NCBI RefSeq assembly: GCF_053078305.1
Contig: NZ_CP166879.1
Reading direction: 5' to 3' (one strand)
DNA length: 64,000 nt
A model generated the notes under the pieces. It was not told the DNA's origin, did no database searches, and worked only from the letters and a program-made list of their open reading frames with translations. The position numbers were made by a program, and so were the translations under genes. Position 1 is the stretch's first letter. Each line of letters starts with the position of its first letter. This document shows, one piece after another, positions 39,797-56,875 of this stretch.

Positions 39797-40007
39797 GTAC
39801 CCAAAAAAAGCCCGATAAGTACAGGAGGCATCTTATCGGGCTTTTGCATATGAGGTTTTTTTGGTGCACTGACACACATGATCGGGGTAATCATTTCATA
39901 ATTTGCAACACAACTCAACATCATTGCACAAAATGCAATCCTGATTATAATCAGAGCTGGATGAACATCCAGTTCTGATTTTTTAAGTCAAAGAGGAATT
40001 TCTTACT

Positions 40008-40214: not shown

Positions 40215-41269
40215 TGACAGTAAAAGCAATGGCACTTACAACTAACCAGCTTTTCGCGTACCTGAATCGCGGGGATATTGCAGAATTTAAATTCAGTCCG
40301 CTGTTTACCACGCTGTTTTTCCCGAACGTGGCGACCTTCAACACCCAGAACATCATGCTGGACACCCTGGACATTGAAGAGGTTACGATGTCAGCGTTCT
40401 GTTCGCCTATGGTGGGTAGTCAGGTCCAGCGCGATAAAGGGTACGAAACCAGCACGATTAAACCAGGCTACATGAAACCCAAACACGAAATCGATCCAAC
40501 AAAAACCATCATGCGCATGGCTGGAGAAGATCCGGCACAGCTTAACGACCCTACCTACCGCCGTATGCGCCTGATTACTGGCAACATGCGCCGCCAGATA
40601 AACGCCATTAAAGCGCGCGTGGAATGGCTGGCGGTGAATGCGATAACGACCGGAAAAAACATCATTGAGGGCGAAGGCATAGAACGCTATGAAATCGACT
40701 GGAAAATACCGGAAAACTGCATCATAGAGCAGGCCAAGGGTAAAAAATGGTCCGAGCATGATAAAGATATTTACGATCCAATCTATGACATCGAACTATA
40801 CGCAGATCAGGCAGGTTGCCCCGCCAACGTCATGATTATGGGCGCTGAGGTATGGCGCACGTTACGCAGCTTTAAAAAATTCCGCGAACTGTACGATCTT
40901 TCCCGTGGTTCAGAATCCGCCGCAGAACTGGCCTGTAAAAACCTGGGTGAAGTAGTGAGCTTTAAAGGCTATCTGGGCGATATTGCCCTTATCGTCTATT
41001 CCGGCAAATACACTGACAGCGACGGTACCGAAAAATATTTCCTTGAGCCTGATTTGCTGGTCCTGGGTAACACCAACAATAAAGGGCTGGTGGCCTATGG
41101 TGCGATTATGGATCAGGAAGCGGTAAGAACGGGCGCAACGCAAAACATGTTCTACCCGAAAAACTGGATTGAAGACGGCGATCCGGCGATTGAGTACGTT
41201 CAGACGCACAGCGCACCGCAGCCGGTACCGGCAGATATTCGCAAATTTGTTACCGTCAAAATTGCTTAA
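40214..41269 (+). CDS. Lambda gpE-family major capsid protein paralogue (E')
   Basis: 351 aa. Shares PGY.KPKHE, GEDPAQLNDP.YRR, VVSFKGY.GD, DGTEK, YPK.W and GDPA.E blocks with helper E (46646-47674). Confidence 0.85.
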   Translation: MTVKAMALTTNQLFAYLNRGDIAEFKFSPLFTTLFFPNVATFNTQNIMLDTLDIEEVTMSAFCSPMVGSQVQRDKGYETSTIKPGYMKPKHEIDPTKTIMRMAGEDPAQLNDPTYRRMRLITGNMRRQINAIKARVEWLAVNAITTGKNIIEGEGIERYEIDWKIPENCIIEQAKGKKWSEHDKDIYDPIYDIELYADQAGCPANVMIMGAEVWRTLRSFKKFRELYDLSRGSESAAELACKNLGEVVSFKGYLGDIALIVYSGKYTDSDGTEKYFLEPDLLVLGNTNNKGLVAYGAIMDQEAVRTGATQNMFYPKNWIEDGDPAIEYVQTHSAPQPVPADIRKFVTVKIA

Positions 41270-41280
41270 CGGGGGATTCT

Positions 41281-41616
41281 ATGGACACTCCATACATTGA
41301 GTTATTTGCAGGCAGTCAGCAGGTATCCACGACGCTGGTACATTTTGCCGCTGATGCTGGCGTTATTCAGGAATTTACCCCGCTGATGCTGGCGGACAAT
41401 GGCGAGTTTAAGCCGTGGGATGGTCAGGAATCTGGCAAGGCTGTTTATCTGACCTCGTACCCCGTGGACACGTCAAAGCAGAAATCAGCACAGTGTTACA
41501 AGACGGGGATATTTAATATCGCCGCCGTAAACTGGCCTGAGAGCGCCGACACTGACGCGAAAAAATGCGCCGCCTTTGCGGGTTCTGGCGTATCCGTTCA
41601 GCCGCTGGCGCGATAA
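41281..41616 (+). CDS. Lambda gpD-family head decoration protein paralogue (D')
   Basis: 111 aa. Shares TPLML, WDGQ, YK.G.F, WPES and AF.G blocks with helper D. Confidence 0.75.
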   Translation: MDTPYIELFAGSQQVSTTLVHFAADAGVIQEFTPLMLADNGEFKPWDGQESGKAVYLTSYPVDTSKQKSAQCYKTGIFNIAAVNWPESADTDAKKCAAFAGSGVSVQPLAR

Positions 41617-41628
41617 GCAGGGGAAACG

Positions 41629-42042
41629 ATGGCAACGAATGAAAGCATCATGGCGCTACCGCTGGCGAGTAAATTTAAAGCAGAAGCGCGGGCAATGGCT
41701 GACAGAGGTTTATCAACCTACGAGGCCGTATATCAACTCAACAAACTGGAAGAGCAGGACAAGCCGCGCGCTGATGCGATTATGGCGCTTCATGAACATA
41801 ACGACTATCAGCCGCTGTTACGTGCAATGGCAAACGTGCCATGTATTAGCGTCGATAATGCTCGTGAAATCCTGAACATGACCATAGAGCAGGAGCGCCC
41901 AAAGGTTGCGCCGGAGCTTACCGCAGCCTTTGAAAACTTTATGGACATGCACAGCCCGAAAGCCGTATCACCCGGCATGGCATACGACGGCAGAAACCAG
42001 GGCGATGAAGGCGACGTCGATCGCATACTGAAAACCATCTGA
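41629..42042 (+). CDS. Nu3-like scaffolding protein (Nu3')
   Basis: The tail LTAAFENFMDMHSPKAVSPG...GDEGDVDRIL parallels the helper gpC tail TTALFEHFMANHSPAAVQGG...GDADVKML. Also IMALHE...ISVDNAREIL versus IMALDE...MTVESARAVL. Confidence 0.65.
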   Translation: MATNESIMALPLASKFKAEARAMADRGLSTYEAVYQLNKLEEQDKPRADAIMALHEHNDYQPLLRAMANVPCISVDNAREILNMTIEQERPKVAPELTAAFENFMDMHSPKAVSPGMAYDGRNQGDEGDVDRILKTI

Positions 42043-42048
42043 CATAAG

Positions 42049-42071
42049 GCCGGAGAAATCCGGCTTTTTTT
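42049..42071 (+). terminator. Intrinsic terminator abutting the island cos
   Basis: GCCGGAGAAATCCGGC plus T7. Confidence 0.65.
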
Positions 42072-42073
42072 AC

Positions 42074-42140
42074 GGGTCCTTTCCGGCATATGGACCCGTT
42101 ACGGGGCGGCGACCTCGCGGTTTTTCGCTATTTATGAGCT
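42074..42140 (+). promoter_or_regulatory. Island cos site 2 (same orientation as helper cos)
   Basis: 42074-42120 is identical to helper 28457-28503, including GGGCGGCGACCT (42104-42115). The downstream cosB-equivalent is different. Confidence 0.85.
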
Positions 42141-42248
42141 TTTTTCGGGTGCTGGTGGTGGTTTTGTTGTTCGCTCTATCTCTATGAATAAAAAGGGAAA
42201 GATAAAACCAATACACCAACCTGAAACATTACTTAAGTGGGGATATTG

Positions 42249-42791
42249 ATGAAATCGCACCTGATGAACAAAAAAAACATGGCGCAAAGCTGCCGTGTAA
42301 GTGCGACAGCGTTCGACAAGTGGGGAGTGACTCCCGTTGAACGTAAAGGACGCGAGGCTTTTTACGATGTTGCCAGCGTGATAGACAATCGGGTAAGCAA
42401 TGCAATTAACCAGGTTACAAACGACAAAGGCGAGATTGATGATGATGAACTCTTACGAGTCAGGATCAGATTACTGACCGCCCAGGCTGAGGCGCAGGAA
42501 CTTAAAAACGAGCGCGATCGCGGTGACGTAATTGATACTGAGTTTTGCCTGTACGCGCTTTCAAAGCTGGCGAGTCAGATTTCTTCAATCATGGACAGTT
42601 TGCCGCTTACCATGCAAAGGCGCTTCCCGCAGATTACTCCCGCTATGCTGGATGGGCTTAAAAGGGAAGTGGTTAAAGCCTGTAATGCCAGTGCCACAGT
42701 TGCCGACAACCTCCCGAAGATACTGGCTGATTACCTGATGGAAACTACCGGAGACGTACCGGAGAAGTTGCTACAGAAGAAAGGCGAGTAA
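42249..42791 (+). CDS. Nu1-family terminase small subunit paralogue (TerS')
   Basis: N-terminal MNKKNMAQSCRVSATAFDKWGV resembles lambda Nu1 (VNKKQLADIFGASIRTIQNW). The C-terminal FCLYALSKLASQISSIMDSLPLTMQRRFPQI..ILADYL parallels the helper TerS. Start 42237, 42249 or 42264. Confidence 0.8.
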   Translation: MKSHLMNKKNMAQSCRVSATAFDKWGVTPVERKGREAFYDVASVIDNRVSNAINQVTNDKGEIDDDELLRVRIRLLTAQAEAQELKNERDRGDVIDTEFCLYALSKLASQISSIMDSLPLTMQRRFPQITPAMLDGLKREVVKACNASATVADNLPKILADYLMETTGDVPEKLLQKKGE

Positions 42792-42940
42792 CAGACGCGC
42801 AATTATTGAACAAAAGTAAGGCCCGACATGAAATCACCCAAAAATGCCTTTTTCATGCGTTTGTATGTCTGACCTTTTACGGTTTCGATATTATAAAAAA
42901 CAAATAGTTACGCTCGAGAGGTACCGACACGCATTTTTCA

Positions 42941-43014
42941 GGAAAATTTTCATAAACAGATAAAAACCGCGAGGTCGCCGCCCCGTAACGGGCCATAATT
43001 CCAGGAAGGACCCG
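42941..43014 (-). promoter_or_regulatory. Island cos site 3 (inverted, diverged flanks)
   Basis: Reverse complement reads GGGTCCTTCCTGGAATTATGGCCCGTTACG-GGGCGGCGACCT-CGCGGTTTTTATCTGTTTATGAAAATTTTCC. The core lies at 42972-42983. Confidence 0.8.
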
Positions 43015-43047
43015 ACGACACCAGGCTATCAGAACGATGAGGGCACA

Positions 43048-43329
43048 ATGACAGAAGCCGAACTACTGGGATTAATCCGCTACGTTACCGGAATCAGCCA
43101 GCAGCATGACGAACAGGCCACGCAGCCGGACAGCGTGACCGCTGAAAATTATGCGCGTGTTGTTGCTGAGGTGATGCGCCGTGATGGTATCCAGCTTAAT
43201 GATGCAGATATGCGCGACATACGGATCCGCGTTCTTGAAATGCTGGCCTACCGTCGCCGCGTGCAGACGTACAGGGAAAAAGCAAAAATAACGTACCAGT
43301 GGAAGAAGCCGGAGCGATTACGGCGGTAA
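43048..43329 (+). CDS. Hypothetical protein
   Basis: 93-aa ORF, last gene before the right arm. Confidence 0.4.
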   Translation: MTEAELLGLIRYVTGISQQHDEQATQPDSVTAENYARVVAEVMRRDGIQLNDADMRDIRIRVLEMLAYRRRVQTYREKAKITYQWKKPERLRR

Positions 43330-43441
43330 CTTGCTGATATTCCCGATAACGCAAAATTGCGCTCTGTCCTAACCCGTTGATATTTTCGGGAACAGCCAAC
43401 GGCTGAGGCCGGAACAACGATTATCTTTCAGATAGTCAGAG

Positions 43442-43458
43442 CTACGAAATTTTCGTAG
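43442..43458. repeat. Palindrome CTACGAAA-T-TTTCGTAG
   Basis: Perfect 8+1+8 inverted repeat of the half site that is repeated at 34771-34800. Confidence 0.6.
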
Positions 43459-43724
43459 TTTAATTACTCGCCAGTTTATCGTTAACTCGTTGATATTTTC
43501 GGTAACCTCAATTTGAGGAGATCGGAAACATAACCCTTCACATTCTGAATGGTTATAATGACCACTCAGACCATCAAGGCAACCATAACGAACATCGTTA
43601 CGGTTGGAGCTTTTACCCCACTGGGGGGAAGGTGCACATCTGGATCATCATTACCGTGATCAAGGGTATGTAAAACCCACCAGCCTGATTAACTGTTAAC
43701 CGGAAAAAAGCCAGGTAGCCAATC

Positions 43725-43748
43725 TCGATATGGGGATCCCCATATCGA
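43725..43748. repeat. 24-bp perfect palindrome TCGATATGGGGATCCCCATATCGA
   Basis: Read directly from the sequence, in the ORF-free right arm. Confidence 0.6.
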
Positions 43749-43834
43749 CATTAACGCCCCCTAGAACTGCGCATATCTGCATATAAAAACATCCACCAGC
43801 TTTATGACGGATGCCGCTCATCTGATAAATAATC

Positions 43835-43857
43835 GTGTATTGCAATGTGTATTGCGA
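43835..43857. repeat. GTGTATTGCAA repeats (right arm)
   Basis: GTGTATTGCAA at 43835-45 and GTGTATTGCGA at 43847-57. Confidence 0.5.
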
Positions 43858-43929
43858 CTCCTTTAAACGATAGGTTTGAGCATTCGTAATGTACTGTTTT
43901 TAAATTTTATTTTTTCCTGTCTTTTCATA

Positions 43930-44709
43930 AAAGCCATGTATGCAGCGACGATTGAAAGTGAACTTGATACCGAAAAGGCCTTTGAATATATCGCCGGTGC
44001 GCCGCAGGGGCAGAAGGATAATCCGCTTATTAATATTCTGGATAAGTTCTCCACCTGGTATGACACGAATATCGTGACGCTGGGCGGTGTCAAAATTCCG
44101 CACCTTTTCCCCGGTGATGATCTGAAACTTCAGACCGCGCAGGATTCAGACAATGGATTTTCGGCGCTTGAACAGGCGCTGCTGCGGTATATCGCCGCCG
44201 GTCTTGGCGTTTCCTACGAACAGTTGTCCCGTGATTACTCGAAGGTCAGTTATTCAAGTGCCCGCGCCTCCGCCAATGAGTCGTGGCGCTATTTTATGGG
44301 ACGACGAAAATTTATTGCAGCCCGGCTGGCCACGCAGATGTTTTCCTGCTGGCTGGAAGAGGCACTTCTTCGGGGGATTATCCGTCCGCCACGGGCACGT
44401 TTTGATTTTTATCAGGCGCGTTCAGCCTGGTCGCGGGCAGAGTGGATTGGCGCAGGAAGAATGGCCATTGACGGGCTCAAGGAGGTCCAGGAATCAGTGA
44501 TGCGCATTGAGGCCGGACTGAGCACGTATGAGAAAGAGCTGGCGCTGATGGGTGAGGATTATCAGGACATTTTCCGCCAGCAGGTCAGGGAATCCGCAGA
44601 GCGGGAAAAAGCCGGACTCTCACGTCCGGTGTGGATAGCGCAGGCGTATCAGCAGCAGATAGCAGAGAGCCGCAGGCCGGAAGAGGAGACAACACCACGT
44701 GAGACGTAA
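43930..44709 (+). pseudogene. B: Portal protein gpB, 3' part
   Basis: KAMYAATIESELD...LLRYIAAGLGVSYEQLSR...ARASANESWRYFMGRRKF...GAGRMAIDGLKEVQE is collinear with the recalled lambda B C-terminal half. Codons upstream of 43930 are island DNA. Confidence 0.9.
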
Positions 44710-46204
44710 TCTTTCACACATTATTGCCGCAGCATTCAATGAACCGCTGCTTCTGGAGCCCGCCTATGCGCGGGTTTTCTTTTGCGCGCTCGGGCGCGAG
44801 ATGGGGGCAGCAAGTCTTTCGTTACCACAACAGCAGGTACAGCTTGATGCTCCCGGGATGCTGGCTGAAACGGACGAGTACATGGCCGGAGGTAAACGAC
44901 CGGCCCGTGTTTACCGGGTGGTGAACGGTATTGCGGTACTGCCGGTGACCGGCACGCTGGTGCACCGGCTGGGTGGTATGCGGCCATTTTCCGGAATGAC
45001 AGGCTATGACGGCATTGTTGCCTGTCTTCAGCAGGCAATGGCGGACACCTCTGTCCGGGGCGTACTGCTGGATATTGACAGTCCGGGCGGGCAGGCCGCC
45101 GGTGCGTTTGACTGCGCTGACATGATTTACCGCCTCCGGCAGCAGAAGCCGGTCTGGGCACTGTGTAATGACACGGCCTGTTCTGCGGCCATGCTGCTGG
45201 CGTCGGCCTGCTCCCGACGGCTGGTTACCCAGACATCCCGTATCGGCTCCATTGGCGTGATGATGGGCCATGTCAGCTATGCCGGTCATCTGGCGCAGGC
45301 CGGAGTGGATATCACGCTGATTTATGCCGGGGCGCATAAGGTGGATGGCAATCAGTTTGAAGCGTTGCCGTCAGAGGTTCGCCAGGACATGCAGCAGCGG
45401 ATTGATGCGGCGCGCCGGATGTTTGCCGAAAAAGTGGCGATGTATACGGGGCTGTCTGTGGAAGCTGTCACGGGGACAGAGGCTGCCGTTTTTGAAGGTC
45501 AGTCCGGTATTGAAGCCGGGCTGGCGGATGAATTAATCAATGCGTCGGATGCCATCAGTGTGATGGCTGCGGCGTTGAACACACATGATACAGGAGGCAC
45601 TATGCCGCAATTAACTGCAACGGAAGCCGCCGCGCAGGAGAACCAGCGAGTGATGGGGATCCTGACGTGTCAGGAAGCGAAAGGACGTGAACAGCTTGCC
45701 ACGATGCTGGCAGGACAACAGGGCATGAGCGTTGAACAGGCCCGGGCGATTCTGGCCGCGGCGGCACCACAGCAGCCGGTGGCATCCGCGCAGAGTGAAG
45801 CCGATCGCATTATGGCGTGTGAAGAAGCTAAAGGTCGTGAACAACTGGCGGCAACGCTGGCGGCGATGCCGGATATGACGGTGGAAAAAGCCCGCCCGAT
45901 CCTGGCGGCTTCACCGCAGGTGGATGCCGGCCCCTCACTCCGTGATCAGATTATGGCTCTGGATGAGGCAAAAGGGGCTGAGGCGCAGGCTGAACAGCTG
46001 GCTGCCTGCCCGGGAATGACAGTGGAGAGCGCCCGGGCTGTGCTGGCTGCGGGATCAGGTAAGGCAGAACCGGTTTCTGCATCAACAACCGCCCTGTTTG
46101 AACATTTCATGGCGAACCATTCACCGGCAGCCGTGCAGGGTGGCGTGTCACAGACGTCGGCAGACGGTGATGCGGACGTGAAAATGCTCATGGCCATGCC
46201 ATGA
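44699..46204 (+). CDS. C: Head protease/scaffold gpC (S49 ClpP-like) with nested Nu3-type C-terminus
   Basis: FNEPLLLEPAYARVFF..., SPGGQAAGAFDCAD and RIGSIGVMM are collinear with recalled lambda C. The C-terminal scaffold module is triplicated. Confidence 0.9.
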   Translation: MRRNLSHIIAAAFNEPLLLEPAYARVFFCALGREMGAASLSLPQQQVQLDAPGMLAETDEYMAGGKRPARVYRVVNGIAVLPVTGTLVHRLGGMRPFSGMTGYDGIVACLQQAMADTSVRGVLLDIDSPGGQAAGAFDCADMIYRLRQQKPVWALCNDTACSAAMLLASACSRRLVTQTSRIGSIGVMMGHVSYAGHLAQAGVDITLIYAGAHKVDGNQFEALPSEVRQDMQQRIDAARRMFAEKVAMYTGLSVEAVTGTEAAVFEGQSGIEAGLADELINASDAISVMAAALNTHDTGGTMPQLTATEAAAQENQRVMGILTCQEAKGREQLATMLAGQQGMSVEQARAILAAAAPQQPVASAQSEADRIMACEEAKGREQLAATLAAMPDMTVEKARPILAASPQVDAGPSLRDQIMALDEAKGAEAQAEQLAACPGMTVESARAVLAAGSGKAEPVSASTTALFEHFMANHSPAAVQGGVSQTSADGDADVKMLMAMP

Positions 46205-46240
46205 AGTCAGTGCTGACCATCAATATGAGGTTTTTACAAT

Positions 46241-46588
46241 ATGGTAACGAAAACCATCACTGAACAACGTGCGGAAGTACGTATTTTTGCCGGTAATGAT
46301 CCGGCTCATACCGCCACAGGCAGCAGCGGGATTTCTCAGGCAACACCGGCACTGACGCCCCTGATGCTGGATGAAGCCAGCGGGAAACTGGTGGTCTGGG
46401 ACGGACAGAAAGCCGGTAATGCGGCTGGCATACTGGTACTGCCGCTTGAAGGCACAGAGACGGTGCTGACGTATTACAAGTCGGGGACCTTTGCGACGGA
46501 GGCAATCCGCTGGCCTGAAAGTGTGGATGAACACAAAAAGGCCAACGCCTTTGTCGGCACAGCCCTGAGTCACGCGGCGCTGCCGTAA
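46241..46588 (+). CDS. D: Head decoration protein gpD
   Basis: NDPAHTATG...TPLMLDEASGKLVVWDG...YYKSGTF resembles lambda D. Confidence 0.85.
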   Translation: MVTKTITEQRAEVRIFAGNDPAHTATGSSGISQATPALTPLMLDEASGKLVVWDGQKAGNAAGILVLPLEGTETVLTYYKSGTFATEAIRWPESVDEHKKANAFVGTALSHAALP

Positions 46589-46645
46589 CACGTTATCAGG
46601 CCACCGCGTTGGCCTGACTGATTTCTGAATGAAAGGAACTGATTT

Positions 46646-47674
46646 ATGGGATTGTTTACGACCCGCCAGTTACTCGGTTATACCGAACAAAAAGTGAAAT
46701 TTCGTGCGCTGTTTCTGGAGCTGTTTTTCCGCCGTACGGTGAATTTCCACACCGAAGAGGTGATGCTGGATAAAATTACCGGAAAAACGCCGGTGGCAGC
46801 CTATGTCTCCCCGGTTGTTGAAGGAAAAGTGCTGCGTCATCGTGGTGGTGAAACCCGCGTGTTGCGTCCGGGCTACGTCAAGCCGAAACACGAATTTAAT
46901 TACCAGCAGGCGGTGGAGCGCCTTCCCGGTGAAGATCCGGCGCAACTGAACGACCCGGCCTACCGTCGTCTGCGTATCATCACTGATAACCTCAAACAGG
47001 AAGAGCATGCCATTGTCCAGGTGGAGGAAATGCAGGCGGTGAATGCCGTGCTGTATGGCAAATACACCATGGAAGGGGAGCAGTTTGATACTGTCGAGGT
47101 GGATTTCGGGCGCTCTGAAGGAAATAACATTGAGCAGGCTGACGGTAAAAAATGGTCTGAGCAGGACCGTGATACGTTTGATCCGACGCATGATATTGAC
47201 CTCTACTGCGATCAGGCCAGCGGTCTTGTGAATATCGCCATTATGGACGGTACGGTCTGGCGTCTGCTGAATGGCTTTAAGTTGTTCCGCGAAAAACTGG
47301 ATGCCCGTCGCGGCTCAAATTCACAACTCGAAACAGCAGTGAAAGACCTGGGGTCGGTGGTGTCCTTCAAGGGGTATTACGGCGATCTGGCCATTGTGGT
47401 GGCGAAAACGTCTTATGTGGCAGAGGACGGTACCGAAAAACGTTATCTGCCGGAGGGCACGCTGGTCCTGGGAAATACGTCAGCGGAGGGCATCCGTTGC
47501 TATGGTGCCATTCAGGATGCGCAGGCGTTGTCCGAAGGTGTGGTGGCCTCTTCCCGTTATCCGAAACACTGGATGACCGTGGGCGATCCGGCCCGTGAAT
47601 TCACCATGACGCAGTCCGCGCCGCTGATGGTGCTGCCGGATCCGGATGAGTTTGTGGTGGTACAGGTGAAATAA
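46646..47674 (+). CDS. E: Major capsid protein gpE
   Basis: Collinear with recalled lambda E (PGYVKPKHE, VEEMQAVNAVLYGKYTM, RRGSNSQLETAVKDLG, GDPAREFTMTQSAPLM). Confidence 0.95.
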   Translation: MGLFTTRQLLGYTEQKVKFRALFLELFFRRTVNFHTEEVMLDKITGKTPVAAYVSPVVEGKVLRHRGGETRVLRPGYVKPKHEFNYQQAVERLPGEDPAQLNDPAYRRLRIITDNLKQEEHAIVQVEEMQAVNAVLYGKYTMEGEQFDTVEVDFGRSEGNNIEQADGKKWSEQDRDTFDPTHDIDLYCDQASGLVNIAIMDGTVWRLLNGFKLFREKLDARRGSNSQLETAVKDLGSVVSFKGYYGDLAIVVAKTSYVAEDGTEKRYLPEGTLVLGNTSAEGIRCYGAIQDAQALSEGVVASSRYPKHWMTVGDPAREFTMTQSAPLMVLPDPDEFVVVQVK

Positions 47675-47725
47675 TCCGGGAGCGGGGGCGAAATGCCCCC
47701 GTGTCTTTTTTCACAGGGGGCTGAG

Positions 47726-48109
47726 ATGGCAACAAAAGAAGAAAATCTGAATCGTCTTCGTCAACTGGCTGGTCTGCTGGGGCGCGAGGCGGATATGTCG
47801 GGGAGTGCTGCGGATATTGCTCTGCGTGTGTCTGAGTGGGAAGAGGAGCTTGCAGCTTCCCGGGAGGGCATTATGCACTCTGATGAGAGCGGGTCTGATC
47901 AAAATGACACAGACGATGGTGAGCAGTTGAACAACACGGATTCTCCGGATGATGTTAAAGCCGTCCGGGTACGGAAGTGCCTGCAAGTGATGGGGTATTG
48001 CCCGGAGACAGGTCGTCCCGTTGAGCTGGCGTTACGGGGTATGCGTGTTCTGGTGCCATCATCACTGGCAACGGCCATGATACAGCACGGAACGGCTGAA
48101 TATGCGTGA
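47726..48109 (+). CDS. FI: DNA-packaging protein FI
   Basis: MATKEENLNRLRQLAGLLGREADMSGS...ALRVSEWEEEL with an acidic linker, lambda FI-like. Correct position. Confidence 0.7.
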   Translation: MATKEENLNRLRQLAGLLGREADMSGSAADIALRVSEWEEELAASREGIMHSDESGSDQNDTDDGEQLNNTDSPDDVKAVRVRKCLQVMGYCPETGRPVELALRGMRVLVPSSLATAMIQHGTAEYA

Positions 48110-48455
48110 TTTTCAGAATGCCTTTGATGCTGCCCTCGCCGGGGTGGACAGTACGATCGTTGAAGTGATGGGGATCCGTGCGCAGTTCACCTCCGGTGCA
48201 CAGCGTGGCGGCGAAGTTCAGGGGGTTTTTGACGATCCGGAGTCGCTGGGTTTTGCCGGTGGCGGGGTCCGTATTGAAGGAAGCAGCCCGTCATTATTTG
48301 TGCGGACGGATACGGTGCGTGCTGTGCGGCGTGGTGACACGCTGACCATTAACGGCGAGATGTTCTGGGTGGATCGTGTTTCTCCGGATGACGGGGGCAG
48401 CTGTTATCTCTGGCTCAACCGTGGGCAACCACCCGCTGTTAACCGGCGACGATAA
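48102..48455 (+). CDS. FII: Head-tail connector FII
   Basis: ...GVFDDPESLGFAGGGVRIEGSSPSLFVRTD..RRGDTLTI...FWVDRVSPDDGGSCYLWL..PPAVNRRR is near-identical to recalled lambda FII. Confidence 0.9.
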   Translation: MRDFQNAFDAALAGVDSTIVEVMGIRAQFTSGAQRGGEVQGVFDDPESLGFAGGGVRIEGSSPSLFVRTDTVRAVRRGDTLTINGEMFWVDRVSPDDGGSCYLWLNRGQPPAVNRRR

Positions 48456-48470
48456 ACGCAGGGTGAAATT

Positions 48471-48940
48471 ATGGCGATAAAAGGGCTTGATCAGGCGATT
48501 GATAATCTGAGCCGGGTTCGTAAAAACGCCATTCCTGCTGCTTCAGCAATGGCCATTAACCGCGTGGCCACAACGGCAATAAATCAGTCTGCGTCACAGG
48601 TTGCCCGTGAGACAAAGGTACGCCGGAAACTGGTAAAGGAAAGGGCCAGGCTGAAAAGGGCCACGGTAAAAAATCCGCAGGCCAGAATCAAAGTTAACCG
48701 GGGGGATTTGCCTGTAATCAGGCTGGGTAATGCGCGGGTTGTCCTGTCCCGACGCAGGCGACGTAAAAAGGGGCAGCGTTCATCCCTGAAAGGTGGCGGC
48801 AGTGTGCTTGTGGTGGGTAACCGTCGCATTCCCGGCGCGTTTATTCAGCAACTGAAAAATGGGCGGTGGCATGTCATGCAGCGTGTGGCCGGGAAAAACC
48901 GTTACCCCATTGATGTGGTAAAAATCCCGATGGCGGTGCC
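48471..48940 (+). pseudogene. Z: Tail protein gpZ, truncated at about codon 157 by the Mu-like insertion
   Basis: MAIKGLDQAIDNLSR...YPIDVVKIPMAVP matches recalled lambda Z. The frame then reads VTR-stop in foreign DNA. Confidence 0.85.
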
Positions 48941-49115
48941 TGTAACCAGGTAAATCATTTGATACCGACAAGGGTTTTAGTGAAAGGAGGTGAAATCACC
49001 TGTAAGATACTGAAATAAAACAGGTGATCGATGATTCTGGAGGTTGTTTAGTTTTGATACTGATTAAATAAAATCCGGTATAAAATTAAGGTATCGGCAA
49101 CAAATTTGATACTGC
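48941..49115. repeat. Left-end transposase binding-site region (attL of Mu-like phage)
   Basis: TTTGATAC at 48958-65, 49053-60 and 49105-12. Related AAGATAC at 49004 and inverted GTATC at 49091. The terminal dinucleotide is TG. Confidence 0.6.
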
Positions 49116-49245
49116 ACATACTGCTTATGGACGTTTTTAAAAGTACTTAAAATGTCTTTTATGCTAAAAAGTTTATATCAATATCGATCTGGTCACAAAT
49201 CAAGTTGAAAGTGCTCGCTAAGTGCATAGCCTGGGCTTCATGGGG

Positions 49246-49764
49246 TTACGCTTTGGCTTCTTTATGGGTTAAATTGAAATGATGCTCCTTGGTTTCATCT
49301 CCCTCGAAAATCTCTCTAACCTTTTGATCTGATAAATTATTAAGGCTCAATGCTGCCAGGCGTCGAATACCTGTTAAAGCGATCAACTCTTGATTCTCTT
49401 GATTGCAGAATTCCAGCAATTTTTCTACCCCTTTCCTTCTCAAGGTGTAAATAACTAATTCTTGCTCTTCTTGGCTCAAAGTGTCGATGAGTTCGAGCAA
49501 CTCGCTATTGCCACCGTTCTTTTGAGGGGGCTGGTGTTTTATTTCTGCACTACCTGTAATGATGGAAACAACATGTGCAGGTAAGTCGCTTAAACGGTAG
49601 GCAAATGCTCTCCCTCTGATACCAGGTGTAGTTACCGAACGTTTTTCCCATCCTTCATTTTTTGCTCGTTTATGAAGCCCAGCCAGAGATGAAGGAAGAC
49701 CTCCAACCCCCAACAAGTCACTGGCAAGGATCCATTCTTGGTCAAGGATCATATCAAACTCCAT
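49246..49764 (-). CDS. Mu-type repressor
   Basis: 172 aa on the minus strand at the left end. N-terminal domain LLGVGGLPSSLAGLHKRAKNEGWEKR is shared with the transposase N-terminus, as in Mu c/A. Confidence 0.7.
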   Translation of the reverse strand: MEFDMILDQEWILASDLLGVGGLPSSLAGLHKRAKNEGWEKRSVTTPGIRGRAFAYRLSDLPAHVVSIITGSAEIKHQPPQKNGGNSELLELIDTLSQEEQELVIYTLRRKGVEKLLEFCNQENQELIALTGIRRLAALSLNNLSDQKVREIFEGDETKEHHFNLTHKEAKA

Positions 49765-49981
49765 TTGATATTAACTTTTGTTTATATCTTTTATGCGGTT
49801 TATTTCAAAAATAACTCAATAAAAAACAAATAGATACAGAGCAAATTTAAAAATTTGAAATTAACCAGTTGATATTTACTAAGTTAATATCTAACATATC
49901 AAACATACACTAGTGAGTAACTCAATAGAGTAGCACACATGAGTAATAAAGTTTGCCATAGAAAGTACACAGGGGGCCATT

Positions 49982-50227
49982 GTGAGTCTTATTGAAGATT
50001 GGTCTTCCGCCGATATAAAGGCAGCCTTAGAAAAACGCGATACCAATTTGTCACGTTTATCAAGGGAAAATAATTTGCAGCCTAGGACTTTGGGTAATGC
50101 TTTGCGAGTTCCCTACCCTAAAGGTGAAAAGATAATTGCTAGGGCTATAGGTGTAGAGCCACAGGTTATTTGGCCTACTAGATATGAACGACGTGCGCGG
50201 AGGAAATATGTGGGTTGCAATGACTGA
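49982..50227 (+). CDS. ner: Ner-like early regulator
   Basis: DWSSADIKAALEKRDTNLSRLSRENNLQPRTLGNAL...KGEKIIARAIGVEPQVIWPTRYE resembles recalled Mu Ner. Confidence 0.75.
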   Translation: MSLIEDWSSADIKAALEKRDTNLSRLSRENNLQPRTLGNALRVPYPKGEKIIARAIGVEPQVIWPTRYERRARRKYVGCND

Positions 50228-52292
50228 ATTGATTTCATTCAGTGACCTACCTAGTTCTTTGGCAGGTCTGCACAAAAAAGCAAAGAGGGAAGCGTGGAAA
50301 ACGCGGCTAAAACCAGGGGTAAAAGGGAAAGTTTTAGAGTGTGAAATAGGAGCTTTGCCTTTAACTGTTCAGCAGGCAGTACGCGAACGCCATGCCCTGC
50401 AACTGATGACGCAAAAAGCCGATGAATCACCGGCTCCGGTGGTGACAAAGGCCAGACGCTCACCTGCCGTGGTTGATGCGGTGGAGGCATATCGCGGATC
50501 ACCCCAACTGATGGTCGAACGCCTCAATGCCCTGACTGAAAATCAGCGCCAGGTGGCTGATGCACGAATCGCGATCGTCAGCGAAGTTCTGAAAGTCGCG
50601 CAACAACCTGGTTTCAGCTGTGCGAAGGCTATCCGGTTTATCGTTGACAACCTGGCACGTTCGCAGTTGGACGAGCGCATTGTGGCAATGGTTGAGACGG
50701 CGAACGCCAAAAAGGGAAACAGCCGCGCGTTAAGTGAAATCACGCTGAAACGCTGGATTGCGGCCTTTAACAAGGCGCAGAACGCCGCTGAACGCCTGCT
50801 TTTACTGGCACCGGGTAAGCGCCAGGAAATAAAAGCCGAAGATATTAACTGGCTGCCCGAATTTCTGGCGCAGTATCGCCAGTCAAACGGCCGACCAATG
50901 ACCGAGGCTTACGAGGATTTTGTCGCTGAATGGCAGCACCGGCACGCCGATGAGCCTTATATGCTCGATATCATGCCGTCTTATGACACCATTCGCCGCG
51001 CAATGAAGAAACTGCCGGAAGTGGTGAAACAAAAAGGCCGGGTGACCGGCAGTGAATACCGCCAGCTTGAGGGATTCACGCGCCGCGACTGGTCAAAAAT
51101 GCCGGTGAATTATGTCTGGATTGGTGACGGTCACGGCATGAAGCTGAAATGCGCACACCCGGTTCACGGTCGGCCATTTGCACCGGAAGTGACCTTTGTT
51201 ATCGACGGTGGCACGCGCTTTGTGGTGGGCTGGAGCCTTGACCTGGCTGAAAATGTTTTCGCCGTAGCCGGTGCCATACAGCACGGCATTCGCCATCACG
51301 GCAAACCGTTTCTGTATTACTCGGATAACGGCTCCGGGGAAACCGCCGACATCCTGGATAAGGAGGTTGTGGGGATACTGCCGCGACTGGGGATTAATCA
51401 CCCGACCGGGATTGCCGGTAATCCGCAGGGACGAGGCATTATCGAACGGCTTAACCGCACATTACCGATGCGCATAGCCCGTAAATACCGCACCTATTTC
51501 GGGAAAGGTGCAGATCGCGAGACGTTACGCAAAACCAACCGCGATTTACGCTCGGCATTTACTGCCCTGCAACAGGGCAAACGGCTGAACGCCCGGCAGC
51601 AGTCAGCGATGCGTGATTTACCGTCCTGGTCTGAACTGATTGATGCCATTCGTGACGGTGTTGAGTGGTACAACAACCGGCCGCACGATGAATTACCGGT
51701 GAAGCCGAACGGCAAGCATTACAGCCCGGCGGAGTTCAGAAAAAAACGCCTGGCGGAAGAGGACACGGAAATTGAATGGCTGTCCGATGTTGAGCTGCGG
51801 GATATGTTCCGGCCGATGGTGGAACGCCCTGTAAGACGCTGTGAAATACGCTGGCTGAATAATATTTACTACGCGCCCGAGCTGCGTGACGAGCATGGTC
51901 GTAAGGTGCTTATCAGCTATGACATTCATGATGCCGAACGAATTACCGTACGTCGCCTGGATGGCAGCGTGATTTGCGAGGCGGTATGGGACGGTAATAA
52001 ACGCGAAGCCTTCCCGGTTAGCGCGGAATACTACAAACAGCAGCAACGCCTTAAAGGCATGCGTAAACGCGCAGAGGAAAAAATCCGTGATGCCGAGGAT
52101 GAGGTTGTCAACGTGCTGGAGCACAAGCCGCAGGAGCCCTGGCTGGAAAACATATACCGCCCTGTGGGTAATACGGTGACCGTTCAGCAACCGGTCGCTG
52201 ACGATGAACCTGATGAAGAATACGAGCGTAATTTCCAGCGGGGATTGCAGTTGCTGGAAGCGAAATTAAAAGAAAATGACCCGCTGGCCTGA
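50208..52292 (+). CDS. A: MuA-like DDE transposase
   Basis: About 694 aa. N-terminal site-binding domain, then an rve core WIGDGHGMK...YYSDNGSGE...GRGIIERLN. Confidence 0.85.
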   Translation: MWVAMTELISFSDLPSSLAGLHKKAKREAWKTRLKPGVKGKVLECEIGALPLTVQQAVRERHALQLMTQKADESPAPVVTKARRSPAVVDAVEAYRGSPQLMVERLNALTENQRQVADARIAIVSEVLKVAQQPGFSCAKAIRFIVDNLARSQLDERIVAMVETANAKKGNSRALSEITLKRWIAAFNKAQNAAERLLLLAPGKRQEIKAEDINWLPEFLAQYRQSNGRPMTEAYEDFVAEWQHRHADEPYMLDIMPSYDTIRRAMKKLPEVVKQKGRVTGSEYRQLEGFTRRDWSKMPVNYVWIGDGHGMKLKCAHPVHGRPFAPEVTFVIDGGTRFVVGWSLDLAENVFAVAGAIQHGIRHHGKPFLYYSDNGSGETADILDKEVVGILPRLGINHPTGIAGNPQGRGIIERLNRTLPMRIARKYRTYFGKGADRETLRKTNRDLRSAFTALQQGKRLNARQQSAMRDLPSWSELIDAIRDGVEWYNNRPHDELPVKPNGKHYSPAEFRKKRLAEEDTEIEWLSDVELRDMFRPMVERPVRRCEIRWLNNIYYAPELRDEHGRKVLISYDIHDAERITVRRLDGSVICEAVWDGNKREAFPVSAEYYKQQQRLKGMRKRAEEKIRDAEDEVVNVLEHKPQEPWLENIYRPVGNTVTVQQPVADDEPDEEYERNFQRGLQLLEAKLKENDPLA

Positions 52293-52363
52293 AATAAAAA
52301 AATAACCCGAGCGGCGACTCAGGTTATTTGATTAAACAAGGTATCAAATGAAAGGTTAATAAT

Positions 52364-53296
52364 ATGACTGATATTAACGATGTAATCAAGACCATTGATG
52401 AACTTATTGATGGCGGCGTACTGACGCAGTATGCCATCGCCAGAGAGGCGGGAATTTCCGACGGCACATTATCGGCTTTCCGTAAGGGAAAATATAAAGG
52501 CGATAACGCTGCTGTGGCTGCTTCCCTGCGTTCCTGGTATGAGAACTGGAATAAACAAAGCGCACTGCCGGAACCGCCGCAGTTTGTGGAAACGCAGACA
52601 GTCCAGGAGCTGCGCACACTGTTTCAGGCGGTTCGTCTGATGGGCTGTATTAACGTTATTGTGGGCGTACCGGGTGTGGGTAAAACGGCCACTGCCCGTA
52701 ATTACTGCCAGGAGCAACCAAACACCTGGATGATCACCCTGTCACCCGCGCACTCCAGCGTCACGGAGTGTCTGCTGGAGCTGGCCGATGCGCTGGGGAT
52801 TGATTACACCCGCGCGAACAAAGGGGCATTATCCCGCGCCATCCGCCGTCGCCTGATGGGAACGCGTGGACTGGTGATTGTGGATGAGGCGGATCATCTT
52901 GGTATTGACGGTCTGGAGCAACTCCGGGCAATTCAGGACGCCACGGGGATCGGGATGGTGCTTATTGGTAACCCGCGCGGATTGTTTAAAGGTGGACGCC
53001 GCGCCTTTGATGATTTATCGCGCCTGTTCAGCCGTCTTGCCCGTACAAAACAACTTCGCAAGGCCAAAAAGGCGGATGTGCTGGCCATTGCCAGTGCGTG
53101 GGGGATCAGTGGTGAGGCCGAGCTGGCCGTCATGCAGGCTATCGCTGAAAAGCCGGGAGCGTTACGCGTTCTGACACATACGCTTAACCAGGCGTGGCTC
53201 ACCGCCAGCGGTGAAGGCGCGGCGCTGACAGAAAAACATATTAATGCGGCCTTTAAAGAGGTTTATACCAACCCTGAATTACTCTCACAGGTGTGA
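52364..53296 (+). CDS. B: MuB-like AAA+ transposition ATPase
   Basis: N-terminal HTH, Walker A GVPGVGKT, Walker B LVIVDEADHL. Confidence 0.85.
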   Translation: MTDINDVIKTIDELIDGGVLTQYAIAREAGISDGTLSAFRKGKYKGDNAAVAASLRSWYENWNKQSALPEPPQFVETQTVQELRTLFQAVRLMGCINVIVGVPGVGKTATARNYCQEQPNTWMITLSPAHSSVTECLLELADALGIDYTRANKGALSRAIRRRLMGTRGLVIVDEADHLGIDGLEQLRAIQDATGIGMVLIGNPRGLFKGGRRAFDDLSRLFSRLARTKQLRKAKKADVLAIASAWGISGEAELAVMQAIAEKPGALRVLTHTLNQAWLTASGEGAALTEKHINAAFKEVYTNPELLSQV

Positions 53297-53520
53297 TTAT
53301 GGCGGTATTTAATATTCCTGATATTTACGGACGCTTTTACCTGGTTAATTTCGATAACGTGAAGGTGATTTCACTGGCCGAAAATAAAGAATGTGGCGAT
53401 TTACTTTTTGAATTTAATGACCGCACACGAATGGTGATATCTGCCGGACTTGATCGCGAAGGTGCGACAGACGTTTACAGCGGAATATGCCGTTCTGTTG
53501 GTGCGAAACAAGTCAGCTAA
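53293..53520 (+). CDS. Hypothetical early protein
   Basis: 75-aa coupled ORF. Confidence 0.35.
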   Translation: MIMAVFNIPDIYGRFYLVNFDNVKVISLAENKECGDLLFEFNDRTRMVISAGLDREGATDVYSGICRSVGAKQVS

Positions 53521-53787
53521 ATGAGGTGTTATATGAATATGCAATCCTGCGGTAACAAAATGAATTTATTCGACTCCCTGAACAGCGCGCGCCGTCTGAC
53601 CGAACTTGCCGGTGCGGTACTGGAACGCAGTAAGCGCTATCCGCAACGTTTTGCACTGAAAACCACGCCGCCGGTAGGCAACGTGCAGGGAACCGGTGAA
53701 ATTGAAATCACCATACAGACCAACGGCCTGCGCCGCCGTGTGAAGGCCACCCGCATCAGCGGCTGCACGGTTTACTGGGAGGTGTGA
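53521..53787 (+). CDS. Hypothetical early protein
   Basis: 88-aa ORF. Alternative start at 53533. Confidence 0.35.
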   Translation: MRCYMNMQSCGNKMNLFDSLNSARRLTELAGAVLERSKRYPQRFALKTTPPVGNVQGTGEIEITIQTNGLRRRVKATRISGCTVYWEV

Positions 53788-53788
53788 G

Positions 53789-54071
53789 GTGAAAAAAAAA
53801 TCTCATTGCATGGGCGTGGTCGAGTGGTCTTATTGAGTTTGGTTACGTCCTGCCGGAAGGTGCATTGCCGATAGTTGCCGGAAAGCCTGCCACGGTACGG
53901 CATGTGATTGAGGTTATGGCGCGTCATGGACGTGATGAACAGGAGCAGTTACTGGTTCCGGGGATACCGGAAGCGGTGACGGAGGAAGAAGCCTTTAATG
54001 CCATGATTCGGTTCTGCCGTGAGGTCAGACGCCGGGTCAGTTATCCAAACAGAACGAGGACCAGAGGATGA
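53789..54071 (+). pseudogene. Early gene whose GTG start is out of frame across an A9 tract
   Basis: GTG 53789 plus A9 (53792-53800) stops after 15 codons. The downstream frame (KKNLIAWAWSSGLIEFG...) is open from 53793 but has no start until the TTG at 53865. Confidence 0.4.
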
Positions 54072-54340
54072 GTAAAGTCGTACGCATTATTTTCGAATAC
54101 AAGGAGCACGTTATCCATAAAAACGCGGATGGAACAGTGCGCATGGGGATAAGTCTGGACATACGTTCAACCGGGATAAAGCAGAAAGGTGATGGACCTG
54201 CCATGATTTTTGGGGTGGTTATGCTCGCGGAAAGCAGAGACTTTGCTGAACTTGTGGCAATGAAAGCCAGTGCGCTCATGAAAGATATGAGCATGCGTTC
54301 CGGGGTTATTAAAGGTAATGAATTTAATCAGCAGGGGTAA
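54068..54340 (+). CDS. Hypothetical early protein (paralogue 1)
   Basis: Starts MSKVVRIIFEYKEH. Tandem with a related gene. Confidence 0.4.
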   Translation: MSKVVRIIFEYKEHVIHKNADGTVRMGISLDIRSTGIKQKGDGPAMIFGVVMLAESRDFAELVAMKASALMKDMSMRSGVIKGNEFNQQG

Positions 54341-54344
54341 TTCC

Positions 54345-54638
54345 ATGAGCAAAGTACGCGTTATTTTTGAATTTAAGCATGTTTCGCATGACGAAAAACC
54401 GGCAGGCAATGACTGTGTTGAAGTGCATGAAAAGATTGGTGTGGATGTAAAAACAGAACGTGATACGAATAACAGGCCGACGTCACTCTGTGACGTTTAT
54501 GTAAGTATTCTCCAGTATCACAGTCCTGAAATTATTCAGTTTCTCTCAGCGGAATTTCAGGCATCTGTACAGGCTTTTGGGGCGGATGCCATCATTAAAC
54601 GCCACCGCGTGCATAAAGCATCAGGCACACTGCAATAA
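54345..54638 (+). CDS. Hypothetical early protein (paralogue 2)
   Basis: Starts MSKVRVIFEFKH. Confidence 0.4.
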   Translation: MSKVRVIFEFKHVSHDEKPAGNDCVEVHEKIGVDVKTERDTNNRPTSLCDVYVSILQYHSPEIIQFLSAEFQASVQAFGADAIIKRHRVHKASGTLQ

Positions 54639-54649
54639 GGAAAAACAAA

Positions 54650-55180
54650 ATGGCAAAACGCGTTACAAAATTAAAGGCCGCAGCAGAGGCGGCACCGCAG
54701 ACCCGTGAAGAGGTCAGCCGCGATATCCGCACCCTGGGCGATATTCAGCGAGAGGCGCTGCGCCTGGAAACAGCGATGAATGATGAAGTGGCAGAAATCA
54801 CCGCCCGTTATACGCCGCAGATTGAAAACCTTAAAAAAGAAATCAAAGTGCTTTTTAAGGGGATTCAGGACTGGTGCAAAACCAACCGTGATGAGCTGAC
54901 GAACGGCGGCAAAACCAAAACTGCCAATCTGACCACCGGAACAGTGTCATGGCGGCTGGGAAATCCATCATGCAGCGTCAGCCGTGATGTGGAAGGTGTG
55001 ATTGAAATGCTGCGCCGTATGGGGCTTGAGCGATTCATCCGCACGAAAGAGGAAGTGAACAAGGAAGCGGTCCTGGCGGAGCCGGATGCAGTGAAAGGCA
55101 TTGCCGGTATTAAGGTGAATAAAGGCGCTGAAAGTTTTTATGTCGAGCCTTTTGAACAGGACGCCGGACTGAATAAATAA
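54650..55180 (+). CDS. gam: Gam-like host-nuclease inhibitor
   Basis: 176 aa in the Mu Gam pattern (..REEVSRDIRTLGDIQRE...YTPQIENLKKEI...NGGKTKTANLTTGTVSWR). Confidence 0.8.
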   Translation: MAKRVTKLKAAAEAAPQTREEVSRDIRTLGDIQREALRLETAMNDEVAEITARYTPQIENLKKEIKVLFKGIQDWCKTNRDELTNGGKTKTANLTTGTVSWRLGNPSCSVSRDVEGVIEMLRRMGLERFIRTKEEVNKEAVLAEPDAVKGIAGIKVNKGAESFYVEPFEQDAGLNK

Positions 55181-55277
55181 CACCGCATTAAATCTTTAAA
55201 TATCACATCGTTTTAAGTATGGCGCTCGCGTCAGGGGACTGTCTGCGCCTGTAAACTGAAAATAAGGAACAGGATAT

Positions 55278-55820
55278 ATGGCATATTTTTATTTCAAATT
55301 AGACCGTGTGCAGACAAATAAATATTTCACCAAATATCAACAGACTGTTTTACCGCTACGCAACAGTATTCTTCGGGCATTACTGAAAAATACAGGCGCT
55401 GCCGGATTGCGCTTAAAGCCGTTTGCCATGGACGTAATCAGTGAGTTTTATTTTTCTGGTACTCTGCCTGCGGGCTGGCGTAAGCGCGATGATGTGGCTT
55501 TTATCGGGGACGGACCGTGCTTTATTGCCAGACCTGATGAGTCATGCCCTGAAGGACCGGCGATTGCCGCAATGATTGAAGCCGCTGAACGCGAGTTAAG
55601 AAAGCGTCCTGATTTCCTTGTCTGGCTCTGTGAAAAGCTGGGGGTAATGAGAATCCCCTCCATGTTTAACATGGACTCCTGGTGGACCCCGTCGCTCTCC
55701 CGTGATGCCCTGTGCGTGGTGTTTAAAGTAGGCGCTTATGGCAGGGAAATAAAAGGGGGTATTCCTGAAGAATGCCAGGAGATTAAACATTCTGAATATG
55801 TGGCGCTGACGGAGGAATAA
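55278..55820 (+). CDS. Hypothetical protein
   Basis: 180-aa ORF in the semi-essential early region. Confidence 0.4.
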   Translation: MAYFYFKLDRVQTNKYFTKYQQTVLPLRNSILRALLKNTGAAGLRLKPFAMDVISEFYFSGTLPAGWRKRDDVAFIGDGPCFIARPDESCPEGPAIAAMIEAAERELRKRPDFLVWLCEKLGVMRIPSMFNMDSWWTPSLSRDALCVVFKVGAYGREIKGGIPEECQEIKHSEYVALTEE

Positions 55821-55823
55821 TTC

Positions 55824-56357
55824 ATGATTGATGCAAAAGTGCTTGAAGGGGTTAAAAACTGGCTGAGTATTTACGGGCGTCTGACCTGCGGAGTTCTGGC
55901 TGAAAAAATGAATATGCCGCCATCCTCGATGGTTTATTTTCTGCGTGATGCGGTTGATGCCGGGGTGCTGACGGAATGTAACGGTTTTTATGATATTCCG
56001 CGTCCCCGCCCGGTGCAGCCGGTTCGTCGCAAATGCAGCCAGGAGTCTGCGGCTGATGATGTTCAGTGGTGCAGCTTCAGAAAATCCCTGCCGTGGATTG
56101 AGGGGCATGATATTCCGTCGATGGCGTGGGAATTTGCTCAGGGCATACTGACCTGTGAAACCGTTTATGTGGTGGCTGAAGTTGATGAGCAGGCCATGAA
56201 AGAAGGCGTGCCCCAGTTTGTGATGGCGTATATCGACATACGCCTGGGTGTCATTATCTGCGGTTTAAGCGGCTGGAATATCACCTCGCGCGTTCTGCGT
56301 TACCTGATTGTTGACCGGACGGCCGCGCCTGCCGGGATATCTGCGGAGGTGGCGTAA
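55824..56357 (+). CDS. Hypothetical protein (N-terminal wHTH-like)
   Basis: 177-aa ORF. Confidence 0.4.
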   Translation: MIDAKVLEGVKNWLSIYGRLTCGVLAEKMNMPPSSMVYFLRDAVDAGVLTECNGFYDIPRPRPVQPVRRKCSQESAADDVQWCSFRKSLPWIEGHDIPSMAWEFAQGILTCETVYVVAEVDEQAMKEGVPQFVMAYIDIRLGVIICGLSGWNITSRVLRYLIVDRTAAPAGISAEVA

Positions 56358-56872
56358 TGTTCTTTAAAACATCAAACCCTTCCGCGCTGGCCGCGTGGCA
56401 AAAATATCAGCAGGACTGCCAGAAAGTTAAGGATGAGGCAAAACGCCTTGAGGCCGTGCTGAATGTTGCGTGCCGGTCGGTATTTGTATCCGGTATCAGT
56501 GGCTTTTGTTTTAAAGGGCTGCGCTTTATGGATGACAAATATCCTTTTCATCGCGACTTATGGCGAAAACCGACTGCGTCGAATGGCTGGAGCTGCACAC
56601 CGCGCACATCACGTATTCCCAAAGCCCTGCGCGTTGCCTCTGACGAACTTAACAGTCTGTGGCGTGAATATTCGCCCGTCACGTATGCCAGAACCGATGC
56701 ACTGTTGTTCTGGCTGGGTATTGATTTCTCGGCAATCATGTTTGGCCCTGTGAAGTGGTTCTGCGTTGACGATGTGATTTACCTTGAGTGCGGCGTAAAA
56801 CCCGCAAATCAGAAAATGACCGAAATTCTGTCTGATGAGTTTTATGCTGCTGAAAAGCGAGTCAGGGGGTGA
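56357..56872 (+). CDS. Hypothetical protein
   Basis: 171-aa ORF with ATGA-type coupling. Confidence 0.4.
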   Translation: MFFKTSNPSALAAWQKYQQDCQKVKDEAKRLEAVLNVACRSVFVSGISGFCFKGLRFMDDKYPFHRDLWRKPTASNGWSCTPRTSRIPKALRVASDELNSLWREYSPVTYARTDALLFWLGIDFSAIMFGPVKWFCVDDVIYLECGVKPANQKMTEILSDEFYAAEKRVRG

Positions 56873-56875
56873 TGT

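Follow-up and report, generated by a model that had tools for sequence, protein, structure and literature searches.

We conclude, with a probability of roughly 0.92, that an Sp18-type Mu-like phage transposed by a DDE-type reaction into the tail gene Z, at codon 157, of a lambdoid prophage resident beside rspB. An earlier note on this DNA, made from the letters of the window (the whole 64-kb stretch that was analysed), had proposed that a Mu-like phage is inserted in the lambdoid Z gene, and had predicted that a right end, a duplication and the continuation of Z would lie downstream of the window. All three are present, and the insertion is therefore real, although the duplication and the right-terminal bases prove to differ from those that were expected.

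Organization of the window

Positions 1-1253 of the window are E. coli chromosome and carry rspA and rspB. The left part of the lambdoid host prophage adjoins rspB and extends from 1447 to 48940 (plus strand), as delimited by homology to E. coli FHI_NMBU_10 and its annotation, together with ORFs and Pfam matches. The prophage starts with its integrase gene (1447-2721, minus strand), which is followed by an excisionase gene, a RecE-like exonuclease gene, immunity and replication genes, a NanS-like esterase gene and the lysis genes, and then by Nu1, A, a split portal gene, C, D, E, FI, FII and the truncated Z. No stx gene was seen in the part of the host prophage that lies within the window. The lambdoid lysis cassette includes a DNA methylase gene (26580-27515; Pfam N6_N4_Mtase) between the lysozyme and Rz genes, and the relative CP55_Sichuan is without this gene. 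The rest of the window, 48941-64000 (plus strand), is the left 15.06 kb of an Sp18-type Mu-like prophage that continues past the window end; it is 96.7-98.8 % identical to Mu-like prophages located at unrelated sites, and the homology to these starts at 48941.

The left junction in tail gene Z

The interrupted gene sits as Z does in lambda, with FI and FII upstream and U and V beyond the right junction. Its 5' 470 nt, corresponding to 157 codons, lie at 48471-48940 (plus strand), as judged by identity to lambda gpZ, by Pfam and by the break relative to an intact Z. The ORF as it now stands (48471-48953) ends in ...VVKIPMAVP followed by VTR encoded by Mu-like DNA, with a stop codon at 48951-48953. 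The truncated product aligns with residues 1-157 of lambda gpZ at 91 % identity, and it covers positions 1-157 of the 190 in the Pfam Minor_tail_Z profile (PF06763; 2.7e-64). Alignment with the intact Z gene of E. coli STEC434 runs through 48940, with seven scattered substitutions among the 470 nt, and is lost from 48941 onward, where the intact gene continues with GCTGACCACAGCATTTAAACAG, encoding LTTAFKQ. The break at 48940/48941 is thus exactly where the earlier reading had put it, with a match to lambda Z as far as VVKIPMAVP and foreign DNA from the TG at 48941. The TGCC at 48937-48940 occurs only once in intact Z and is repeated at the right junction, which identifies it as the left copy of a 4-bp target-site duplication.

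The same boundary is obtained from the Mu-like side. In a megablast comparison with 5,426 complete E. coli genomes, Mu-like homology begins exactly at 48941 with TGTAACC... (TGTAACCAGG...), and the left terminal dinucleotide 5'-TG (48941-48942, plus strand) is constant in all copies while the flanks differ. An exact junction search found no complete E. coli RefSeq genome that spans the Z/Mu junction, and an exact-protein look-up of the truncated Z returned no record.

The right junction and reconstruction of Z

The relatives of the inserted element are 38.8-40.0 kb long, so its right end must lie beyond the window. An exact 30-mer across the left junction has one match in IMG/VR, in record UViG_2617271340_000001 (IMG taxon 2617271340), which aligns with window positions 36643-49412 with no substitutions and 11 single-base indels over 12.7 kb. 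Given the absence of mismatches over this length, the record and the window apparently represent the same strain in another assembly. Eleven indels without any substitution are consistent with the same strain having been assembled twice, once with homopolymer-type errors; the ORFs of the window within 36643-49412 are open.

A second IMG/VR search, for the conserved right end of the relatives separated by a gap of variable length from the downstream part of Z, also gave a single match, UViG_2617271340_000003, from the same IMG taxon, 2617271340. In this record the right end of the Mu-like phage (...GCGCTATA) is followed by TGCC and then by GCTGACCACAGCATTTAAACAG, the junction reading ...GGTATCAAAAAAATCGCCGCGCTATA/TGCC/GCTGACCACAGCATTTAAACAG..., i.e. 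CTATA/TGCC/GCTGACC. Beyond it Z is completed (LTTAFKQ...), and U, V, G, T, H and additional tail genes follow. Removal in silico of the element and one copy of TGCC restores a 579-nt ORF encoding a 192-residue Z, which is identical to the intact STEC434 Z at 190 of 192 positions. What had been predicted for the right end therefore stands with respect to the Z continuation (LTTAFKQ...) and fails with respect to a CA-3' terminus and a GTGCC duplication, in place of which CTATA-3' and TGCC are found.

It is exceedingly improbable that the junction is an assembly chimera, in which a lambdoid contig was misjoined to a Mu-like contig. The presence of two Mu-like copies in the source genome can confuse assemblers, and the 11 single-base indels between the window and the IMG/VR record mean that the sequence is imperfect in one of them. 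The identical junction nevertheless recurs in the independent IMG/VR record, the reciprocal junction has a matching 4-bp duplication with a seamless continuation of Z, and the break falls exactly at the conserved TG terminus of the element.

The left and right junctions were read from separate IMG/VR records, apparently of one genome, and this bears on a further alternative, that the arrangement is not a simple insertion and that the junctions are now the ends of different Mu-like copies, brought together by inversion, recombination or replicative rearrangement. We consider this improbable too, if less extremely so. A second Mu-like left end is present in the same genome (IMGVR_UViG_2617271340_000022), and no record of taxon 2617271340 covers the approximately 21 kb between position 64000 and the right-end locus; a 42-mer from 63950-63991, used as a bridge in IMG/VR, matched four other genomes and none from this taxon. 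However, both Z junctions carry TGCC and together rebuild Z perfectly, which indicates that the original event was a simple insertion. Moreover, the second copy differs in its immunity region and shares only 92-97 % identity, and the right-end locus has, as expected, a right arm of the Sp18 type, with 98.4 % identity to that of strain Z869. Simple insertion of one element in Z is thus the reading that we adopt, and the insertion was found in no other genome searched, whether in complete E. coli RefSeq or in IMG/VR.

The second Sp18-type left end begins at position 449 of its record, with the flank ...CTCTGTGCCTGG/TGTAACC. As a distinct left end with its own immunity region, it implies that the strain holds two distinct Mu-like prophages.

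Duplication length and terminal bases

Both flanks were read for ten independent Sp18-type insertions, the present one included. An exact 4-bp duplication is found in all ten: CATC in LC727881, ATCA in strain Z869, ATAA in STEC2018-553, CGAG in N8B7-2, TTTT in MDP9-27, CTGA in F8492, AGAA and AACA in IMG genomes 2529293218 and 2548876695 respectively, TAAA for Sakai Sp18 and TGCC for the insertion in Z. The element between them reads TGTAACC...GCGCTATA in every case, with TG at the left and TA-3' at the right. Immediately left of the left repeat, these insertions have T, C, A, T, A, G, G, C, T and G, so that the terminal A of the element is matched in two of the ten; immediately right of the right repeat, its first T is matched in three of the ten. 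A fifth base therefore matches at the rate expected by chance; the duplication is 4 bp, and no 5-bp reading fits. The alternatives GTGCC and TGCCT, and termini shifted to G...A or TG...CA, each fail in most of the ten insertion pairs, and TG...TA with 4 bp is the sole reading that accommodates all of them. The duplication had previously been given as the five bases GTGCC at 48936-48940; it is the four bases TGCC at 48937-48940, in line with the 4 bp seen in 10/10 insertions. Likewise, the right end had been expected to be CA-3', and it is ...CTATA-3' both here and in 10/10 insertions. A 4-bp feature in the GenBank entry LC727881 already carries the label 'duplication due to insertion of Mu'.

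The duplications described for transposable phages are 5 bp (Mu) and 6 bp (B3), and TG-CA ends are conserved in Mu- and B3-like phages, with TA-TA prophages of Leptospira as the reported exception (PMC8705779). The Sp18-type element departs from the textbook description of Mu on both counts, the duplication length of 5 or 6 bp and the CA-3' right end, and in the literature searched we found no paper that discusses a 4-bp duplication or Sp18-like ends. The 4-bp stagger may be a property of the enzyme. The chances seem to us about even that the Sp18-type phages constitute a distinct Mu-like lineage, marked by a highly diverged A protein, a 4-bp stagger and asymmetric ends, CA-3' at the left and TA-3' at the right. 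Should this be so, and should it be previously undescribed, these phages would offer a natural system for the study of stagger length and terminal-base choice in MuA-type transpososomes. There is also a practical consequence for annotation, in that the ends of Sp18-type prophages should be sought as TG...TA with 4 bp rather than TG...CA with 5 bp; a scan based on the textbook rule would misplace or overlook them.

End repeats

Three putative transposase-binding sites lie near the left end, all on the plus strand: L1 (TTTGATACCG) at 48958-48967, at offset 18 from the terminus and kept in the relatives, and L2 and L3 (both TTTGATACTG) at 49053-49062 and 49105-49114, at offsets 113 and 165, each conserved in an otherwise diverged stretch. 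The TTTGATAC repeats listed in the earlier note at 48958, 49053 and 49105 are thus all present. The window contains eight copies of TTTGATAC against 1.9 expected, a number that none of 100 shuffles reached, so that three copies within 155 bp are not attributable to chance. In copies of the phage whose left-end sequence has diverged, the TTTGATAC motifs stand out as conserved islands.

At the right end, repeats of the same TTTGATACYG type are found at offsets 18, 40 and 75, and those at both ends all point inward. With the ends placed at TG...TA, the first TTTGATACCG site is at offset 18 from both termini. We infer that these TTTGATAC repeats are bound by the A transposase. The ends of Mu have an L1 / L2-L3 and R1-R2-R3 layout of sites, which the spacing of the Sp18-type repeats resembles.

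Genes of the Mu-like phage

Downstream of the left repeats, Pfam domains occur in Mu order as far as the window end, as had been claimed: a repressor gene on the divergent strand, ner, A, B, gam, mor, lysis, gp27 and terminase. The Mu c-type repressor gene (49246-49764, minus strand; Pfam HTH_Tnp_Mu_1) has the position and strand of its Mu counterpart, and the gene for a Ner-like early regulator (49982-50227, plus strand; Pfam HTH_35) occupies the position of Mu ner. The remaining genes are also on the plus strand. Transposase A is encoded at 50184-52292 and has weak similarity to MuA, with HTH_Tnp_Mu_1 at residues 22-149 and Mu-transpos_C at residues 539-599 (Pfam); in relatives the gene is annotated from a start equivalent to 50208 (2085 nt). 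Immediately after it is the gene for a MuB-type AAA+ target-capture ATPase (52364-53296; Pfam Phage-MuB_C and AAA_22). There follow a Gam homologue (54650-55180; Pfam Phage_Mu_Gam), a Mor middle-transcription activator (59032-59457; Pfam Mor) and, at the start of the lysis cassette, a lysozyme gene (59529-60029) recognized by a length and position that equal those of the annotated lysozyme in relatives. A Mu gp27 homologue (61511-62092; Pfam Phage_Mu_Gp27) occupies the small-terminase position.

The gene in the large-terminase position (62351-64000) is open to the window end and aligns with a 1665-nt gene of the relatives. Its alignment to these by BLAST has six gap openings, and pseudogenization was considered on account of the apparent frameshifts; the translation is nevertheless uninterrupted over 549 codons, and we discarded this interpretation.

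Between gp27 and the large-terminase-position gene there is an extra ORF of 82 amino acids (62103-62351) that none of the relatives compared possesses; its final 90 or so nucleotides duplicate the 3' end of gp27, and it has no Pfam match. For several Sp18-type relatives, the RefSeq annotation includes an 80-nt 'tRNA-OTHER', encoded on the minus strand between the genes for head morphogenesis and virion morphogenesis, in a region beyond the window (L003:18689-18768, L007:17921-18000 and L008/L009:18387-18466), and F8492 is without this annotation.

The possibility that the inserted element is a degraded Mu-like remnant, and not a complete and potentially active phage, is one that we regard as unlikely. 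The window shows no more than 15 kb of it, and the extra ORF with its duplicated gp27 segment sets it apart from its relatives. Against degradation, all genes in this 15 kb of Mu-like DNA are open and of the lengths found in the relatives, both termini and all six repeat sites are intact, and the right 2.9 kb matches intact relatives; in addition, the perfect target-site duplication and the absence of the insertion from the other genomes searched suggest a recent event.

An island in the portal gene

The host prophage is interrupted at a second place. Its portal gene is split into a part at 31278-32150, which matches Pfam Phage_portal_2 positions 2-241, and a part at 43876-44709, which matches positions 235-354. 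Between these is an island of 11.8 kb (32091-43942, about 32104-43929) with imperfect 13-bp repeats, AAAGCCATtTATG and AAAGCCATgTATG, which is integrated site-specifically in the portal gene; without the island the target site would read AAAGCCAT(G/T)TATG. The island genes encode a P4-type integrase, an anti-repressor, an Ash-family regulator, a primase-helicase and a single-stranded-DNA-binding protein (SSB), as well as a lambda-E-like major capsid protein, a decoration protein, a scaffold-like protein and a small terminase. The island resembles a PICI-type satellite aimed at the portal gene of a possible helper phage. The junction between portal and integrase genes occurs in 63 of the 5,426 complete E. 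coli genomes, and no paper describing such a portal-targeting island was found in the literature searched; with its integrase and its occurrence in 63 complete genomes, the island may merit separate study.

Proposed mechanism and consequences for the lambdoid prophage

By analogy with Mu, the A transposase would bind three TTTGATACYG-type sites at each end, six in all, and the MuB-type ATPase, again on the Mu model, would capture and deliver the target DNA. The 3' ends of the element, CA-3' on the bottom strand at the left and TA-3' on the top strand at the right, would then attack Z four bases apart, and gap repair would duplicate TGCC. As a result Z would lose its C-terminal 35 residues, and the tail genes from U to J would be moved about 39 kb farther from the late promoter.

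It is reasonable to suppose that the lambdoid host is crippled by the insertion in Z and that virion production would be lost. Mu-type elements excise without precision, so that the damage would be effectively permanent, unless recombination with another lambdoid prophage were to repair Z. The portal gene is independently disrupted, and the Mu-like insertion may therefore not be the event that disabled the prophage. The composite prophage amounts to at least 97 kb, made up of 47.5 kb at the left, about 39 kb of Mu-like DNA and at least 10.4 kb of tail genes seen, which is roughly twice the size that the lambda capsid accepts for packaging. A composite of this size would exceed the lambda packaging limit regardless of the state of Z, and the insertion must therefore have happened in the prophage state; this, together with its absence from the other genomes searched and the perfect duplication, suggests a recent, strain-specific event. 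More generally, nested mobile elements of this kind immobilize lambdoid prophages and increase the number of defective prophages that Shiga-toxin-producing E. coli (STEC) strains carry.

Comparison with Mu, Sp18 and other transposable phages

Domain architecture, gene order and behaviour all identify the element as a Mu-like transposable phage. The MuB-type ATPase is 49 % identical to MuB over 300 amino acids, whereas the transposase matches MuA only weakly by BLASTP (E about 4e-9), with 21 % identity in the N-terminal 390 residues and 32 % in a C-terminal patch, and at the nucleotide level only a 130-bp patch is similar to Mu. The alignment of the transposase with MuA covers the motifs GDG(H/Y) and (S/I)DN, which we take to contain D269 and D336 of MuA, the first two acidic catalytic positions. 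With the transposase as query, a sequence search of the PDB returned 1TNS, which is the N-terminal domain of MuA, together with the Mu repressor and rve-type retroviral integrase cores, and at E<0.01 no MuA core structure. The element resembles Mu in its TGTA left start, in having three sites per end with L1 apart from L2/L3 and R1 and R2 adjacent, in a repressor and a transposase that share an N-terminal DNA-binding domain, and in insertion sites that are effectively random; Sp18-type insertions are found at such unrelated sites as hyfF, yahO, ypdA, torZ, cah, sorM, lsrC and several prophage genes. It differs from Mu in the 4-bp duplication and TA-3' right end, where Mu has 5 bp and CA-3'.

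The element has the ends of Sp18, and we group it with that phage and not with Mu itself. Sp18 of E. coli O157:H7 Sakai and its STEC relatives, such as Phi804-3 of FRIK804, are of the same type, with termini TGTAACCAGG...GCCGCGCTATA, and they share with the present element the TTTGATAC sites, the gene order and the 4-bp duplication. The differences are that Sakai Sp18 is inserted in sorM and the present element in the lambdoid Z, that the first bases after the terminus are here of the Z869-type variant and not the Sakai/LC727881 type, and that the 82-residue ORF at 62103-62351 is found here and not in the Sp18-type relatives. Insertion sites of Sp18-like phages are known to differ between strains (PMC7430833), and Sp18 itself was predicted to be intact, its DNA being efficiently packaged and not circularized (PMC2669165). 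Further afield, the TA-TA transposable prophages of Leptospira provide a precedent for ends that do not follow the TG-CA rule (PMC8705779), although they end in TA on both sides, use a B3/Tn552-type transposase and show duplications of 6 bp, whereas the present element has TA at the right end only, MuA-type flanking domains and a duplication of 4 bp.

In complete E. coli genomes, many other left ends of the Sp18 type directly adjoin structural genes of prophages, among them genes for terminase small subunit, an HK97-gp10-like protein, tail tip, P2 major capsid, head completion and head closure. Of ten Mu-like phages in STEC of clonal complex 119, six were situated in mobile elements, several of them in Stx phages (PMC10132054). 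Since Sp18-like phages within prophages have been published and are in GenBank, the Z insertion is not new in kind; it is a further instance of a known nested-phage phenomenon, and alone it adds little to a pattern already reported in Shiga-toxin-producing E. coli. Close parallels are LC727881 and LC727895 (Microb Genom 2023, PMC10132054), annotated with a 'region of the inserted Bacteriophage Mu-like phage', in which an Sp18-like phage is nested in a Stx-converting lambdoid prophage much as one is nested in a lambdoid prophage here, the host prophage and the target gene being different.
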